Positions 8,827 to 25,970 of a stretch of DNA of 32,000 bases are shown here, in pieces. The stretch comes from Candidatus Electrothrix yaqonensis. GTDB lineage: Bacteria > Desulfobacterota > Desulfobulbia > Desulfobulbales > Desulfobulbaceae. Below the pieces are notes generated by a model. It worked only from the letters and a program-made list of their open reading frames with translations, was not told where the DNA came from and ran no database searches. Position 1 is the stretch's first letter. Each line of letters begins with the position of its first letter. The stretch is from assembly GCA_047651235.1 (NCBI GenBank), contig CP178758.1, positions 1,620,001 through 1,652,000 of the forward strand. The letters are read 5' to 3'. The position numbers and the translations under genes are program-made.

Positions 8827-10671
8827 TTACTTTCTTTTTTCTGTCAAACAGCGGAATTCCACAGTCCTGACGGAAATTTTTTTTCCATTTTTCTGTTCCC
8901 TGTTCAGCAGCAGTTCCTGCGCCTGCACAAAGGAAGGAACTGCCGCATATAGAGAGGTCTCTGAACCATTTATCCGTTCTGTTGCCCAGGCAATTTCCTT
9001 GCCGTCTGCCAGCTGCAGACGCAGGGTAAAATCAGCCCGTGTGTCCTCTGGTGCGGAAAGGGTTATTTTTATTATGTACCCTGAAGCCTTTCCGCGCCTG
9101 TTCTGAACAGGCATGCGGATTGCGACGTGCAGGCCGTTCGAAGATAATGTACGGATCACATTGTCCTTTCCTATTCTTTCTGGAACAGCAGGGGGGGAGG
9201 AGTGGAATACAGCCTCCAGATAAGGTTGCCGGATACCGGACAGATTTTCCGGTGGAGGTCGCAAAAGAAACATATTCAGTATTTCCTGAATGACAAAGGT
9301 CGGTTTTTCATACGAAAAAACCTCATGCGGAAAGTTGACGACCGTCCTCCGGTTAAAGACTTTCTGAGCATGGGCACTGAAGTAGTACACTGCTTTTTCC
9401 ATAAAGGAGTCACCCAGCAGCAGGATGGAGGGAATCGGTGCAGCAGGATTACATACCGTTCTAATCTGCATACTCTCCCCCCGACTGTTGGTGATTGCGC
9501 TTTTCGGGGGATACACATCATGGATTCCCTCCGGCGGAAGATCGGCAAGACCGTACAGCGGTGTGCCCGGCTTGGGCACCATAGTCAGGTAATGTTCATT
9601 TTTATGGAGTTGTTCCGGCAGGCCGATCATGTTCATGAAGCGGTGGTGCGCCCAGTGTTCATCAATCTTCACAGTGAAATCATCAAGCAGAACCGGATCA
9701 AGGGGATAATCCGGAAAAAAACGTTCCATTTTTCTGATGATCTCCTGATAGGCCACCAGAGATCCGTAAAAATTCCAGTGAAAATCCGTCTTGTAGAAGA
9801 GGAGCGGGTAGTCGCGCTTTTTTTTCTCTTCCAACAGGGCGGGCAGCAGATCAACAAAGTGAACTTGGGCATTTTCACGCAAGTAGGAACTCAGCTGTTC
9901 ATAGCGTCGAGTTCCTTTTGCCAGCTTCTGCAGGGAGTCGGGAAGAAATTCCGGGTAGACCAGGGCCTTGGTGGGAGCCAGGACAAAAACGTACTCGATC
10001 CCCTGCTGCTTCAGCCAGTAACTTCGTTCTTCAAGGGTCTGTTTCCATTTCCACAGTTCCAGCTCGGAAAAGGGATACATACCCATGTAGTCGGCAATAT
10101 TATCAAACTGTTCAACAATTCCCTGTTCGACTTTGCGGTCCCCATATCCTTCAAAGAAGAAACCGTTTTTTCCCAAGGCGATGTTGGGGTTCGGCGAAAC
10201 CCTGAGCAGGTATATCTTGACCAGGGCGTTGAGATGAATGAAATGCTTGGACAGGATGCTGTTGTTCTGCCAATACAATTGATAGGTTCCGGGAAATTCC
10301 CTGAGTACATCTGTAAGAGAAGCGGCGTTTTTTTCTCTCACCCGCTGCAGATATTCGGTTACTTTAACAAAACTTGTGCCAATCCGGGAAGTATGCGACA
10401 GGATCGGGTAGAACAGAACGCCGCAGAACAGAGCAATGAGCAGCAGATGTGCCGGGCGCCAGTCAGAATCAGTCCGCAGCCGCGAATTGATGAGCAGACC
10501 AAAAACTGCTGCTGTCAGCAGAATGAATAGTATTCTGGTGAATAATTTCGAAGACGACCCTGCTGCCAGGTCGACGGACATTTTTTCCCAATTTGCGGCT
10601 GTCAACAGAACGACCGGCAGAAGGCTGACGATACTCCGAACCAGCATATCTTTTGTTGTTTTGCTGATCAT
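8827..10671 (-). CDS. AlgX/AlgJ-type (DHHW/SGNH-like) polysaccharide O-acetyltransferase with N-terminal TM helices and a C-terminal beta domain
   Basis: LFYKTDFHWN matches the AlgJ/AlgX D-x-H-W catalytic motif. The start overlaps the stop of the upstream MBOAT gene (ATGA). About 3-4 N-terminal TM helices are present. Confidence 0.65.
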   Translation of the reverse strand: MISKTTKDMLVRSIVSLLPVVLLTAANWEKMSVDLAAGSSSKLFTRILFILLTAAVFGLLINSRLRTDSDWRPAHLLLIALFCGVLFYPILSHTSRIGTSFVKVTEYLQRVREKNAASLTDVLREFPGTYQLYWQNNSILSKHFIHLNALVKIYLLRVSPNPNIALGKNGFFFEGYGDRKVEQGIVEQFDNIADYMGMYPFSELELWKWKQTLEERSYWLKQQGIEYVFVLAPTKALVYPEFLPDSLQKLAKGTRRYEQLSSYLRENAQVHFVDLLPALLEEKKKRDYPLLFYKTDFHWNFYGSLVAYQEIIRKMERFFPDYPLDPVLLDDFTVKIDEHWAHHRFMNMIGLPEQLHKNEHYLTMVPKPGTPLYGLADLPPEGIHDVYPPKSAITNSRGESMQIRTVCNPAAPIPSILLLGDSFMEKAVYYFSAHAQKVFNRRTVVNFPHEVFSYEKPTFVIQEILNMFLLRPPPENLSGIRQPYLEAVFHSSPPAVPERIGKDNVIRTLSSNGLHVAIRMPVQNRRGKASGYIIKITLSAPEDTRADFTLRLQLADGKEIAWATERINGSETSLYAAVPSFVQAQELLLNREQKNGKKISVRTVEFRCLTEKRK

Positions 10672-18373: not shown

Positions 18374-18400
18374 TGTATTCCTTTTTTTTCCGGCAGAATA

Positions 18401-18469
18401 TTACTCGCCGGTTTCCTGGAGCATATCTTCCATTTTTTGCGACTGGGCATTCTGCAGGGCCTGGGTATC
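18401..18469 (-). pseudogene. remnant 3' end (22 codons plus stop) of a paralogue of the small lipoprotein gene at 19577-19816
   Basis: 18401-18469 aligns without gaps to 19577-19645 with 59/69 identical. The translations are DTQALQNAQSQKMEDMLQETGE* and ESQAMQNAQSQKMEDMLQESEE*. Homology stops abruptly at about 18470, where the AT-rich DNA begins. Confidence 0.75.
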
Positions 18470-18570
18470 ATATGCATGCGTATGTATCATGATCTCTAAT
18501 GCATATTTCATCTGGAGCGTCGATGTAGATGAAATTTTGAATCGTCATAATCTGTGTTTTATTACCAGAA

Positions 18571-18627
18571 GCCGAACGAGAAGCTCAGCCGCCGCGTTTA
18601 GCGGTCGGCTGGAGCGTTTTGTTATAG
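18571..18627 (-). other. attC (59-base-element) integron recombination site
   Basis: In the minus sense: CTATAAC-AAAAC-GCTCCAGC-CGACCGC-TAAAC-GCGGCG-GCTGAGC-TTCTC-GTTCGGC, that is R''/L''/L'/R' boxes. On the plus (bottom) strand this folds into a 13-bp stem with a 5-nt loop and two extrahelical bases (T18605, G18612). The site spans 57 nt. The ORF stop TAA lies inside R''. Confidence 0.8.
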
Positions 18628-19341
18628 CTTTTTACTTATTTCGGTTATTACCTTTTCTGATACTTTTTTAAAATTCATAAGAGAATATTTTTTAAGCCAT
18701 ACTGAATTATCAATTTGGGCAAGAATTAATAAATGTTCACCGTCCTCACTGACTTCTTTGTCAATTACAGACTGAATAGACTTCTCAATTTCAATATATT
18801 CATACCCGTTCGGTTTGATTAGCCCTATAATACAAAGGTCCTCATCATTAAGTTCTCCATCACCATTTGTATCATTTTTTACAACCTCAATGTATAGAGC
18901 TACAACAGGCTCATTCTTATCACCGTTACTTTTCTTTCTTAAATGTGAAAAGTTTCTAATGTAATTTGAGTGTTTTTCATACAACCAATGAGAATCTATA
19001 TCTGAGCCAACAAGAAATAAAATATTGCGAATTTGACCGCCAGAATAGCCAGATGAAAATTTGCCACCTGATCTTTTTGATTCAAGCCTGATATATTGAA
19101 CGTCATGGCCCTCTATTATATGGATACCTTCGAGAATAAGTTCAATTTTATTTGCATCCTCAGAATTCGAGTTATCGATCACTTCAAAGGTACGTCTATC
19201 CTGCCACTTATTTGATTGGAAAGTCACTATTAAGATCAGGAATAAAGCGCCAAATAATAAAAGAAGAAAAACAACAGAATTAATCCTATTGATTACTCTA
19301 AAAAAAATTAATTCTTCCATGTTTGATTCTCCAGGCTATAA
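18577..19341 (-). mobile_element. integron-type gene cassette (single ORF plus attC), 765 bp; no integrase in the window
   Basis: The boundaries are G|TT crossover points. The 5' boundary G|TTATAGC (19342-19335, minus sense) is the exact complement of the cassette's own R'' GCTATAAC (18628-18621). The cassette is very AT-rich compared with its flanks. A 21-nt leader carries a GGAG SD, and there is no internal promoter. Confidence 0.75.
18622..19320 (-). CDS. cassette-encoded hypothetical membrane-anchored protein with an EF-hand-like Ca-binding loop
   Basis: It has an N-terminal TM helix (VVFLLLLFGALFLILIVTF), a DTNGDGELNDED loop (DxNxDGxLxxxD), a GGAG SD 8 nt before the ATG, and AT-rich codon usage unlike its neighbours. 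Confidence 0.65.
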   Translation of the reverse strand: MEELIFFRVINRINSVVFLLLLFGALFLILIVTFQSNKWQDRRTFEVIDNSNSEDANKIELILEGIHIIEGHDVQYIRLESKRSGGKFSSGYSGGQIRNILFLVGSDIDSHWLYEKHSNYIRNFSHLRKKSNGDKNEPVVALYIEVVKNDTNGDGELNDEDLCIIGLIKPNGYEYIEIEKSIQSVIDKEVSEDGEHLLILAQIDNSVWLKKYSLMNFKKVSEKVITEISKKL

Positions 19342-19420
19342 CAGTATTAATAAGTGGAAACTTTCCATGCTATTGACAGTAATAGATTTCATGAATTTCC
19401 ACTTATTACGATATTGAGGC
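19336..19420 (-). other. degenerate attC-like imperfect hairpin ending in the cassette-boundary R' box
   Basis: In the minus sense: GCCTCAA(T)ATCG-TAATAAGTGGAAA...TTTCCACTTATTA-ATACT-GTTATAG. It has a 13-bp perfect outer stem plus bulged inner pairing, about 85 nt in all. The R''-like GCCTCAA is one change from the classic GCCTAAC. Confidence 0.45.
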
Positions 19421-19576
19421 GAAAAACGGGAAAACTTTTCCACTTATCACTTTTCGCCTCCATTTTTCCTCTTATCACGCTATACAGCAGCTAACATGGA
19501 ACCCGGAAAAAGTAATTCTGTTGATGAACCATATCCTTCATCCGCTTCAACCGGAGCGAAGCGCAACACCTTAGAA

Positions 19577-19816
19577 TCACTCCTCGCTTTCCTGCAGCAT
19601 ATCCTCCATTTTTTGCGACTGGGCGTTCTGCATGGCCTGGGATTCCTTGGCCTTATCCAAGGGTTTGTTGATATGCTCAACTGCCTTGGCCGCAACCTTA
19701 TCCGAAGCCTGCTCCACCACGCCTTTTTCGTCCTTGTCGCCGGAACAGCCGGTCAGCATAACAAAAGCAGCGAGGAACAGCAGAGTAAGGGAAGCTGAGA
19801 TGATTTTTTTGTTCAT
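19577..19816 (-). CDS. small lipoprotein (79 aa), helical and acidic
   Basis: MNKKIISASLTLLFLAAFVMLTGCSG is a lipobox (LTGC). Its 3' end is duplicated at 18401-18469. Confidence 0.65.
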   Translation of the reverse strand: MNKKIISASLTLLFLAAFVMLTGCSGDKDEKGVVEQASDKVAAKAVEHINKPLDKAKESQAMQNAQSQKMEDMLQESEE

Positions 19817-24293: not shown

Positions 24294-24923
24294 ATGAGAA
24301 CTATGAAAACGATTTTTGTCTTATGCCTTTTTCAGTTTTTTTTCGTCACCCAGCTTCCGGTAATTGCACTTGCTGAAAATGTCAGCAGTATTATTGACTG
24401 GTCGGTGAGCAAAACATGGACGATATCGTCAGCTCCGTCAGATTTTTCCGTGTCCTTTGATAAAAAAAAGATATTTACCTTGGAGGATGACCAGAAAGTA
24501 CATATATATGCTGATTCCTTTAACGGCAGACGGCTGGGCACTATCGATGTCGCGCCGGGCACCGTGGCGTTTGATATTGCGCCGCGCGGAGAAATGCTGT
24601 ATCTGGTGGACAGCGCCAAAAACTATACGGCTATCAGTATAGATTATAATAAACAGAATGATACTGTTGCGAACTGGTCGGTGCAGCATACCTGGAAGAC
24701 GGATGCCCGCCCCCTTGATATTGCCCAGTCGATTGACAAAAAATTCGCCTTTGTGCTGGAAGATGACAACAGAGTGCATGTCTATACTGTTGCCGGTGTA
24801 AAAAGAAAAATTATTTCAGTCAGCACCGGTACAATCGCCATTGATATCCCGTCCCGGAAAAATATCCTCTGCCTCATTGACCGCTACCGCCACTACATGT
24901 CCATACATTTTCCCCGGCTGTGA
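24294..24923 (+). CDS. secreted protein made of two copies of an ~80-aa beta-propeller-blade-like module
   Basis: A signal peptide is followed by aa 35-117 and aa 127-209, which align (WSV..TW...D...S.DKK..F.LEDD..VH.Y...G....I.V..GT.A.DI..R...L.L.D). A third copy is in the next gene. Confidence 0.6.
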   Translation: MRTMKTIFVLCLFQFFFVTQLPVIALAENVSSIIDWSVSKTWTISSAPSDFSVSFDKKKIFTLEDDQKVHIYADSFNGRRLGTIDVAPGTVAFDIAPRGEMLYLVDSAKNYTAISIDYNKQNDTVANWSVQHTWKTDARPLDIAQSIDKKFAFVLEDDNRVHVYTVAGVKRKIISVSTGTIAIDIPSRKNILCLIDRYRHYMSIHFPRL

Positions 24924-25109: not shown

Positions 25110-25970
25110 ATGAAGATCATGAAAAGCATTTTCGTGTGCAGCCTGTTTTTTCTGGCTTCGGGGCAGGTGCTTGCTGCCGAGCAACCTGCACAGCCGAGCA
25201 GCACTCTGCGTGCATCCAACATCAGCACCTGGAAGCTGAATGTCACGCCGCTTGATTTTGTTCAGTCGCTGGACAACCAGCTGGTTTTTGTCCTGGGAGA
25301 TGACAGCAAAGTGCATATCTATTCTGTCGATGGCGTGGAAAAGGGAAGCGTACCGGTCGCTAAAGAAACAGTGGCCATTGATATTGCGCCGCGCGGAGAG
25401 ATGCTCTTTCTTGTGGACAGCAATAAAACCTACACCGCGCTTGATATCTCCTTTGCCCACGATATCGACACAACCGGTTCTCCGTTTATCGGAAAAAAAG
25501 ATGCACCTGTAACTCTGGTTGTATTTTCTGATTTTCAATGCCCGTTCTGCAGCAAGGTGCAGCCTCTGCTGGACAAAATCCTGGAGAGCAATCCGGGTAA
25601 ACTGAAAATTGTGTTCAAGCATCTGCCGCTCCAGATGCATAAACAGGCCCGTCCTGCTGCGCTTGCTTCTATCGCAGCCCAGGAACAGGGGAAATTCTGG
25701 GAAATGCATGATGCCCTCTTTGCAGTTTCCAAAAAACTGAATAAAGAGACCATCGAGAAGGCAGCAACTGATATCGGCCTGGATATGGAAAAGTTTAAAA
25801 AGGACTGGACCAGCCCTGCTGTTGAGGAAAAGCTGAAAAAGGATATGATGGACGCCGGAAAAGCCGGGGTCGGCGGAACGCCCAGCCTGTACATTAACGG
25901 TCGTCAGGTGAAAGGCCGCGGCACGAATATCCTGCAGAAGATGATTGATCAGGAACTGGCCCAGAAATAA
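25110..25970 (+). CDS. DsbA-family thiol:disulfide oxidoreductase fused to an N-terminal copy of the same ~80-aa module
   Basis: The SD is AAGGAGAAAG and a signal peptide is present. The module (aa ~37-115) includes DIAPRGEMLFLVDS. It is followed by VVFSDFQCPFCSKV (CxxC) and GGTPSLYINGR (cis-Pro loop region) of the DsbA/Thioredoxin_4 fold. Confidence 0.75.
   Translation: MKIMKSIFVCSLFFLASGQVLAAEQPAQPSSTLRASNISTWKLNVTPLDFVQSLDNQLVFVLGDDSKVHIYSVDGVEKGSVPVAKETVAIDIAPRGEMLFLVDSNKTYTALDISFAHDIDTTGSPFIGKKDAPVTLVVFSDFQCPFCSKVQPLLDKILESNPGKLKIVFKHLPLQMHKQARPAALASIAAQEQGKFWEMHDALFAVSKKLNKETIEKAATDIGLDMEKFKKDWTSPAVEEKLKKDMMDAGKAGVGGTPSLYINGRQVKGRGTNILQKMIDQELAQK

Follow-up and report, generated by a model that had tools for sequence, protein, structure and literature searches.

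Features of the locus

The DNA analyzed here, referred to below as the window, is a stretch of 32,000 nucleotides from the cable bacterium Candidatus Electrothrix yaqonensis (Candidatus Electrothrix sp. YB6; contig CP178758.1, positions 1,620,001 to 1,652,000). Between a lipoprotein gene and sbcB, the window contains a block that is very probably an ectopic piece broken from a chromosomal integron of the Electrothrix type (about 18400 to 19572), which has lost the integrase gene, intI, and has kept the attI site, a docked gene cassette and the attC recombination site of that cassette. The block from 18500 to 19500 has a G+C content of 34%, compared with about 52% for its surroundings, and is bracketed by the two copies of a 66-nt direct repeat (88% identity). 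Read along the minus strand, the fragment would consist of an intI stub, the complete intergenic region between intI and the first cassette with attI, an intact cassette, and the first 111 nt of a second cassette. The coordinates of these features are collected in Table 1.

Table 1. Position, strand and basis of the features assigned to the integron fragment and its borders (positions are those of the window)
Feature	Position	Strand	Basis or description
Direct repeat copy A	18400..18465	-	Orphan lipoprotein 3' end; then sbcB start
Second cassette, first 111 nt	18466..18576	-	Begins at attC crossover; truncated at repeat copy A
attC site	18571..18627	-	Sequence, DNA fold, match to covariance model derived from class 1 integrons
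Gene cassette, 765 bp	18577..19341	-	G↓TT boundaries; homology to first cassette of contig L082
ORF232, cassette cargo	18622..19320	-	N-terminal transmembrane helix and all-beta domain; 22 homologues
attI region (intI-attI intergenic)	19342..19495	-	Homology to 14 metagenome contigs; ends at G19342↓T19341
intI remnant	19496..19515	+	Start codon and about 6 codons; alignment to intI starts of contigs L146 and L262
57 nt, origin unassigned	19516..19572		Between intI stub and lipoprotein gene; hairpin CGCTTC...GAAGCG
Direct repeat copy B	19576..19641	-	3'-terminal 21 codons plus stop codon; intact lipoprotein gene of 79 aa (19816-19577)

The attC site

At the 3' end of the open reading frame (ORF) that we call ORF232, the minus strand reads GCTATAAC-AAAAC-GCTCCAGC-CGACCGC-TAAAC-GCGGCG-GCTGAGC-TTCTC-GTTCGGC. 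In this sequence R'' is CTATAAC (18627-18621) and R' is GTTCGGC (18577-18571). Between them lie the L'' arm, GCT[C]CAGCCG[A]CCGC (extrahelical bases in brackets), the loop TAAAC and the L' arm, GCGGCGGCTGAGC, with AAAAC and TTCTC as the two spacers. The AAC and the GTT of the core-site consensus (RYYYAAC for R'', GTTRRRY for R') are both present, with one deviation in each box, and the crossover position is G18577↓T18576 (the arrow marks the crossover here and below). The stop codon of ORF232, TAA at 18624-18622, falls within R''.

In integrons, the extrahelical bases of the folded bottom strand of attC guide the choice of strand by the integron integrase (IntI), and cleavage takes place between G and TT. 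The bottom strand of this site is the plus strand of the window. Folded as DNA, 18571-18627 of the plus strand gives a stem of 13 bp (4+5+4), a loop of 5 nt and two bulges of one base each, T18605 and either G18611 or G18612, the GG being ambiguous. The energy of this fold is -15.7 kcal/mol (z = -3.8), and none of 200 shuffled sequences folded as well. The fold contains an R box, unpaired central spacers, an L box, and extrahelical bases that are all on one arm; in such a hairpin IntI would be expected to pick the strand by the two extrahelical bases.

For comparison with attC sites of known identity, class 1 integrons were located in a plasmid collection with IntI1, and 14 distinct attC sites were drawn from the sequences 3' of cassette genes in the 15 annotated arrays found. 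These are the sites of aadA1, aadA2, aadA5, aadA16, aadB, orfF, blaVIM-2, aac(6')-Ib, dfrA5, dfrA12, dfrA14, dfrA27, arr-3 and aac(6')-29a. All 14 fold alike: a 7-bp R box and a spacer come first, then 3 bp and a bulge, 6 bp and a second bulge, and at the end a stem of variable length. A covariance model, R1, was built from their 16 conserved pairs. When R1 was run on the window with filters off, the sole significant match was on the minus strand at 18575-18623, with a score of 22.4 bits and an E-value, to be taken as rough, of 0.0017; the runner-up scored 9.6 bits. A search of 666 kb of unrelated metagenome contigs gave no match up to E = 10. In 872 kb of DNA around sbcB in other genomes there were two matches above 22 bits, which are possibly real attC sites. 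Matches a few kb from sbcB were seen in a Thermodesulfobacteriota genome (L061 10525-10612, minus strand, 26.6 bits) and in a gammaproteobacterial genome (L017 5027-5143, plus strand, 25.6 bits), and each of these may be an isolated attC. R1 also matched sequences in arrays that adjoin the attI family described below, with 35.7 bits in L262, a contig of E. aestuarii, and 22.6 and 21.3 bits in L163. In a further contig (L167 136-193 and 1141-1275, plus strand), matches of 22.6 and 22.0 bits lie past the intI 3' end, on the far side from attI.

The cassette and its cargo

The cassette extends from T19341 to G18577 and is made up of a 21-nt leader with a GGAG sequence, ORF232, and the attC site up to its G. 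At its 5' boundary (19342-19335), 21 nt ahead of the ATG at 19320, the minus strand reads G↓TTATAGC, which is the complement of GCTATAAC at eight of eight positions. The cassette holds a promoterless ORF in the same orientation as the attC site, and its 5' bases are complementary to its own R''. Judged by these sequence features, the hairpin is a genuine attC that closes a 765-bp cassette; its activity in recombination is predicted.

A preliminary description of this DNA had already proposed a cassette here, and much of it was borne out. The minus-strand sequence of the site reads exactly as quoted there, and the layout of boxes, the stop codon within R'', the 13-bp stem with its 5-nt loop and two extrahelical bases, the geometry of the aadA type, the eight complementary bases at the boundary, and the extent of a promoterless one-ORF cassette with a Shine-Dalgarno sequence were all found as described, except that the second bulge may be at either of two G residues. 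The covariance-model match that it had predicted for the minus strand was obtained, with R1 rather than with the IntegronFinder model, and the fold of the plus strand as DNA agreed with it. The 5' boundary also received independent support: a conserved attI ends at this point in 14 metagenome contigs, and a homologous cassette in contig L082 begins there.

The closest homologue of ORF232 is P0002, a protein encoded in L082 that is 78% identical. P0002 opens an array of five small ORFs on the same strand, each followed by an attC-like site, and the first bases of each cassette in this array are complementary to the R'' of that cassette (at 6/7, 6/7, 7/7, 6/7 and 7/7 positions). The window and the first cassette of L082 are 83% identical at the nucleotide level over 725 nt. 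The homology begins at the very first base, TTATAGCC, with which contig L082 also begins, spans the ORF and reaches R''.

Searches of Pfam, NCBIfam and PADLOC gave no family for ORF232, and none of its 22 homologues, each of about 231 aa, has a family assignment. The members are membrane-anchored proteins that share a conserved GGKFSSGYSGGExRN motif and a DTNGDGxL loop. The latter, conserved in the form DTNGDGxLxxxD, looks like a calcium-binding motif, and may be regarded as a putative one. The AlphaFold2 model of ORF232 (pLDDT 81.7) has a membrane helix at the N-terminus followed by an all-beta domain. In a structure search this modelled domain weakly resembled a partial beta-propeller, with a TM-score of about 0.35 to SMP30 and TolB-type folds. 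Some genes of the ORF232 family are part of cassette arrays, others neighbour immunity genes of the Imm35 or SUKH type, or follow a gene for an RND pump.

The fragment of the second cassette opens with TTCGGC and holds a 26-codon ORF. In L262 the attC nearest to intI (9884-9939, minus strand) has the R'' sequence GCCGAAC, which is the complement of this TTCGGC, and its L'', GCTCCAGCGG, resembles the L'' of the window attC. On the basis of these similarities, the L262 attC and the second-cassette fragment of the window could be halves of one cassette family.

The attI region and the intI remnant

The lipoprotein gene and the cassette are separated by 233 bp, which hold four copies of the sequence ATAAGNGGAAA. 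Three are direct (19475-19465, 19447-19437 and 19406-19396) and one, by the crossover, is inverted (19360-19350); these repeats are putative IntI-binding sites. Relatives of the region were sought with the last 16 nt before the crossover and then compared by blastn. Scans of metagenome and viral sequences with this 16-mer gave mostly chance matches, but 14 metagenome loci proved to be real; for the viral loci, blastn gave a 30-nt match to L258 and nothing longer. The 14 metagenome contigs share the sequence from 19501 to 19339 of the window at 70-92% identity, and in all of them the similarity stops at GTT. In the alignment about 165 bp are conserved up to ...TTTCCACTTATTAATACTG↓TT, and past the GTT the sequences are unrelated.

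Divergent integron integrase genes adjoin the conserved region in 6 of the 14 contigs (L146, L109, L170, L167, L166 and L187). The integrase of L146 is a protein of 335 aa that carries the IntI-specific segment and matches TIGR02249 with 435 bits (cut-off 265). The proteins most closely related to it are annotated as integron integrases and come from Candidatus Electrothrix sp., GW3-4, communis and aestuarii and from Desulfobulbus sp. US4. The region in the window is therefore of the kind that characterizes attI: it lies beside an intI start, which points away from it, it is conserved among integrons with related IntI proteins, and the first cassettes that follow the GTT differ from one integron to the next.

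When the window is aligned with L146 and L262, the ATG at 19496 on the plus strand coincides with their intI start codons. Past about 19515, however, similarity to the 5' ends of intI genes is no better than that of shuffled sequence (z about -0.5). A tblastn search of the 32-kb window with IntI1 and with one IntI of Electrothrix found no integrase ORF, and the window contains no intact intI with the IntI-specific extra domain. Two other assignments were considered and rejected. The survival of about 25 intI codons was discarded since similarity beyond about 19515 is at chance level. The 233 bp had also been taken for a degenerate, AT-rich attC with a long hairpin (AATAAGTGGAAA...TTTCCACTTATT); R1 gave no match there, and the region is attI.

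These results modify the picture of a lone cassette with no integrase in sight, as the preliminary description had put it. The absence of an IntI match in 32 kb stands, as do the attC, the cassette and its boundaries; but an intI start codon and an attI lie directly upstream, and the cassette still sits at its docking site, an attI that has lost the adjoining intI by deletion.

Insertion downstream of the lipoprotein gene

The lipoprotein gene and its neighbour, a RACo-like gene (a 642-aa ORF with RACo domains, 21767-19839), form a pair that is conserved in Electrothrix. The sequence 3' of the lipoprotein gene is variable, and is different in every Electrothrix genome examined. The closest relative found for the locus is L092, which is 89.7% identical over 1066 nt and in which sbcB starts 32 nt past the lipoprotein stop codon. 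Homology of the window to this empty site ends at 19573. From the empty site and the 66-nt repeat it follows that the window contains an insertion of about 1.17 kb, the ends of which are not cassette ends. This empty site was obtained by way of lipoprotein homologues; a synteny search anchored on sbcB, with one genome per species, gave relatives of at most 79% identity that keep sbcB-PilZ and nothing upstream of it, and no empty site among them. E. coli genomes gave no match.

In the closed chromosome of E. aestuarii the integron is elsewhere, next to an acetyl-CoA ligase/GNAT gene, and the integron of L146 has the same neighbour. Since the native integron occupies a different locus in both, the copy in the window is ectopic.

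The two repeat copies have different affinities. Copy B matches L092 at most variant positions and is a native-like allele. Copy A is 88% identical to copy B and 91% identical to the allele of L093, from another Electrothrix lineage, and it has the C-terminus QETGE, as does P0026. Because the insertion is bounded by a repeat of the lipoprotein 3' end, the fragment, as far as can be read from its borders, is not one that arrived by IntI recombination at the cassette ends. The likeliest mode of arrival is homology-assisted or illegitimate recombination at what is a known hotspot locus of the genus, and the resemblance of the repeat copies to alleles of different lineages suggests one of two routes. 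In the first, a homology-facilitated illegitimate recombination, the integron fragment would have interrupted a lipoprotein gene near ...CCCAGGCC..., and an intact allele would later have recombined in on one side. In the second, a small circle with the 66-nt homology would have integrated in the manner of Campbell.

Other rearrangements were observed at this locus. Contig L088 (6152-6234 and 9091-9124) carries a different orphan piece of the lipoprotein gene, which ends at ...CCCAGGCCGTGCAGAA and sits 2.9 kb downstream of the lipoprotein gene, past two PIN toxin-antitoxin pairs. The orphan copy in the window runs from ...CCCAGGCCCTGCAG to the stop codon. Because the partial copy of L088 ends at the same position, the ...CCCAGGCCGTGCAGAA position of the lipoprotein gene may be a recurrent breakpoint. 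In L093 (388-403 onward), sbcB breaks off after ATGACCTTTTTAT, and a response-regulator-like gene on the other strand comes next. Elsewhere in the window there are two diverged direct-repeat pairs (24561-24804 and 25227-25438; 115 nt at 72% and 71 nt at 82%), 540-810 nt apart, which are probably inside adjacent paralogous genes.

Interpretation and alternatives

Both att sites of the fragment look intact, and for this reason excision of the cassette, or docking of others, by an IntI supplied in trans is conceivable. Recombination between attI and attC would release a 765-nt circle with the expected junction ...GAGCTTCTCG↓TTATAGCCTGG and leave a cassette-less joint, ...TTATTAATACTG↓TTCGGCTTCTGG. 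At the circle junction GTTATAG would pair perfectly with R'', restoring the R box, and the site predicted for this junction folds at -21.6 kcal/mol, as opposed to -15.7 for the site in its present context. New cassettes could dock at G19342↓T19341 (...TTATTAATACTG↓TT). Transcription of ORF232 might come from a promoter retained in the attI region or from read-through of the upstream lipoprotein gene, which is on the same strand.

Several observations weigh against the reading of the locus as an integron fragment with an attC and an attI. Each R box departs from the consensus at one position (C at position 1 of R'' and C at position 4 of R'), and in the present context pairing of the R box is limited to AAC/GTT. 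The R1 model is home-made from 14 sites and is not the attC model of IntegronFinder, which makes its E-values rough. The choice of the 16-mer forced identity in the last 16 nt of the attI comparison; neither the homology over some 150 nt around it nor the adjoining intI genes depend on that choice. In L082 the attC that follows the homologous ORF differs from that of the window and looks degenerate, its R'' ending in AAA and its fold being weak; the ORF is thus not accompanied by an unaltered attC wherever it occurs. The distant homologues of ORF232 in L083-L086 are not in cassettes, and no attC was found there.

The alternative that survives best accepts the same structure and takes it for a dead relic, on which no IntI acts any longer and in which ORF232 shares the fate of acquired genes in general, to be retained or lost. 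We put its chances a little below even. The local deletion of intI and the truncation of the second cassette both speak for it, the closest IntI clusters have no YB6 integrase among those members that are named, and integrase-less attC elements of one or several sites are thought to be largely degraded integrons (PMC9024848). Against this, the conservation of attI extends as far as the crossover, no structural feature of the attC is missing, and ORF232 is intact; moreover, an IntI may be encoded elsewhere in YB6, the search having covered the 32-kb window of that genome.

It is much less probable that the element is an orphan cassette in the strict sense, inserted by an integron integrase at a non-classical genomic site (attG), and we regard this as very unlikely. 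Such insertion has been documented by Loot and colleagues (bioRxiv 10.1101/2022.09.11.507474), and a single attC with G↓TT at both junctions and no integrase gene in 32 kb is what it would leave. The left junction, however, is no random genome site but the conserved attI common to integrase-bearing integrons, and what is inserted relative to L092 is bounded by the 66-nt repeat and not by the ends of the 765-bp cassette. Because attI and the intI stub are still attached, loss of the integrase, and not insertion at attG, accounts for the element, which on this sequence evidence clearly arose by decay of an integron.

That the hairpin is instead a transcription terminator or a repetitive extragenic palindrome, like attC by chance, is hardly credible: it does lie directly 3' of an ORF, with a GC-rich and stable stem, and Rfam at gathering thresholds gave no match in the window (a library in which an attC family is not evidently included), but there is no T-run, TTCTCGTTCGGCTTCTGG coming directly after the hairpin, a terminator scan of the window called no site at this position, the hairpin is present once in the window, its bulged bases are right in both identity and spacing, a model made from plasmid attC sites only gave it 22.4 bits, with no more than two matches of similar score in about 1.5 Mb of other DNA, and the cassette boundary, complementary at eight of eight positions, sits at an attI.

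Integrase-less attI copies

In addition to the copy in the window, two attI copies are not beside an intI gene: that of L162 and an internally deleted copy in E. aestuarii, 5.4 kb into the array. Two of these three copies are flanked by direct repeats of the interrupted sequence. A further reading, which seems rather unlikely, is that modules of attI plus cassette without an integrase are recurrent, possibly functional, components of cable-bacterium genomes and not simple debris. If so, orphan attI sites could be secondary docking platforms that the resident IntI serves in trans, and their relocation might be due to a repeat-generating mechanism that is independent of IntI.

In the E. aestuarii contig L262 (CP159373.1; 4534-4632 and 9986-10020), about 35 nt of the attI region are all that is left beside intI. 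The second attI copy of this contig starts with TTCCATGTTAG, which is the intI start; next to it comes a type IIG restriction-modification cassette with a strong attC at its end (1649-1721, 35.7 bits). A direct repeat, about 25 nt long, borders the 5.4 kb in question on both sides. The attI copy of L162 (1991-2094) is 90% identical to that of the window. There is no integrase in the 300 nt upstream of it, and it may be integrase-less.

A literature search on cable bacteria and integrons found no paper that treats both together. The present comparisons show that Candidatus Electrothrix carries a distinct family of integrons, in which attI is well conserved and rich in repeats. Together with the boundaries of the cassette, the sequence of attI provides primers and sites with which integron activity could be tested in an organism that is not yet in pure culture.

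Comparison with known integrons and integrase-less elements

The attC of the window is most readily compared with those (59-base elements) of mobile class 1 integrons, of the aadA1, aadA2 and aadB type. Like them, it falls in the range of 57-60 nt, has the order R''-spacer-L''...L'-spacer-R', an AAC/GTT core and unpaired spacers of 5 nt, and carries, with equal spacing, two extrahelical bases, which are C and A in the top strand and thus G and T in the bottom one. It likewise lies directly 3' of a promoterless ORF, the stop codon of which is within R''. The geometry is that of aadA1 and aadA2, with a 7-nt R'', a 5-nt spacer, 3 bp, a bulged C, 6 bp and a bulged A. The pattern of 3 bp, bulge, 6 bp and bulge is identical to that in the folds of the aadA1, aadA2, aadA5 and orfF sites; the window attC can be drawn in this way because the position of the bulge in its CC is ambiguous. 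The aadA2 site and the window site also share the strings AGCCGACCGC and GCGGCGGCT. The window site differs from the class 1 sites in the R boxes, CTATAAC and GTTCGGC in the window, and in the loop, which is 5 nt rather than 3. Unlike class 1 integrons, the element resides in a deltaproteobacterial cable bacterium, and its cargo is no resistance gene.

Among the sedentary integrons of Electrothrix, that of L146 has an attI which is 82% identical to that of the window over 165 nt and shares with it both the ATAAGNGGAAA repeats and the crossover, and the cassettes and attC sites of arrays of the E. aestuarii CP159373.1 type resemble those of the window in style. Those integrons keep an IntI of 334-335 aa (TIGR02249) and are beside the acetyl-CoA ligase/GNAT gene. 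The window copy does neither: it has no intI, holds one cassette and a part of a second, and lies between the lipoprotein gene and sbcB.

In having an attC-bearing cassette with no integrase gene nearby, the element resembles attC clusters that have no integron integrase (CALIN) and the single attC sites lacking integron integrases (SALIN). With the setting --calin-threshold 1, IntegronFinder would presumably class it among the CALIN, as one with a single attC, that is, a SALIN. An isolated cassette has been defined as a coding sequence with one attC and no other att site or integrase gene nearby (bioRxiv 10.1101/2022.09.11.507474). Lacking an IntI, the element is not a complete integron. In the strict sense of that definition it is not a SALIN either, as an attI adjoins its single attC; in contrast to CALIN and SALIN, it has kept attI and the start of intI. 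Two origins have been proposed for SALIN, decay of an integron and insertion at attG catalyzed by IntI, and 95% of CALIN are not near a recognizable intI pseudogene (bioRxiv 10.1101/2022.09.11.507474). For the debate on how isolated attC sites originate, the window offers a clean case, that of a decayed integron at an ectopic position with an empty site in a close relative for comparison.

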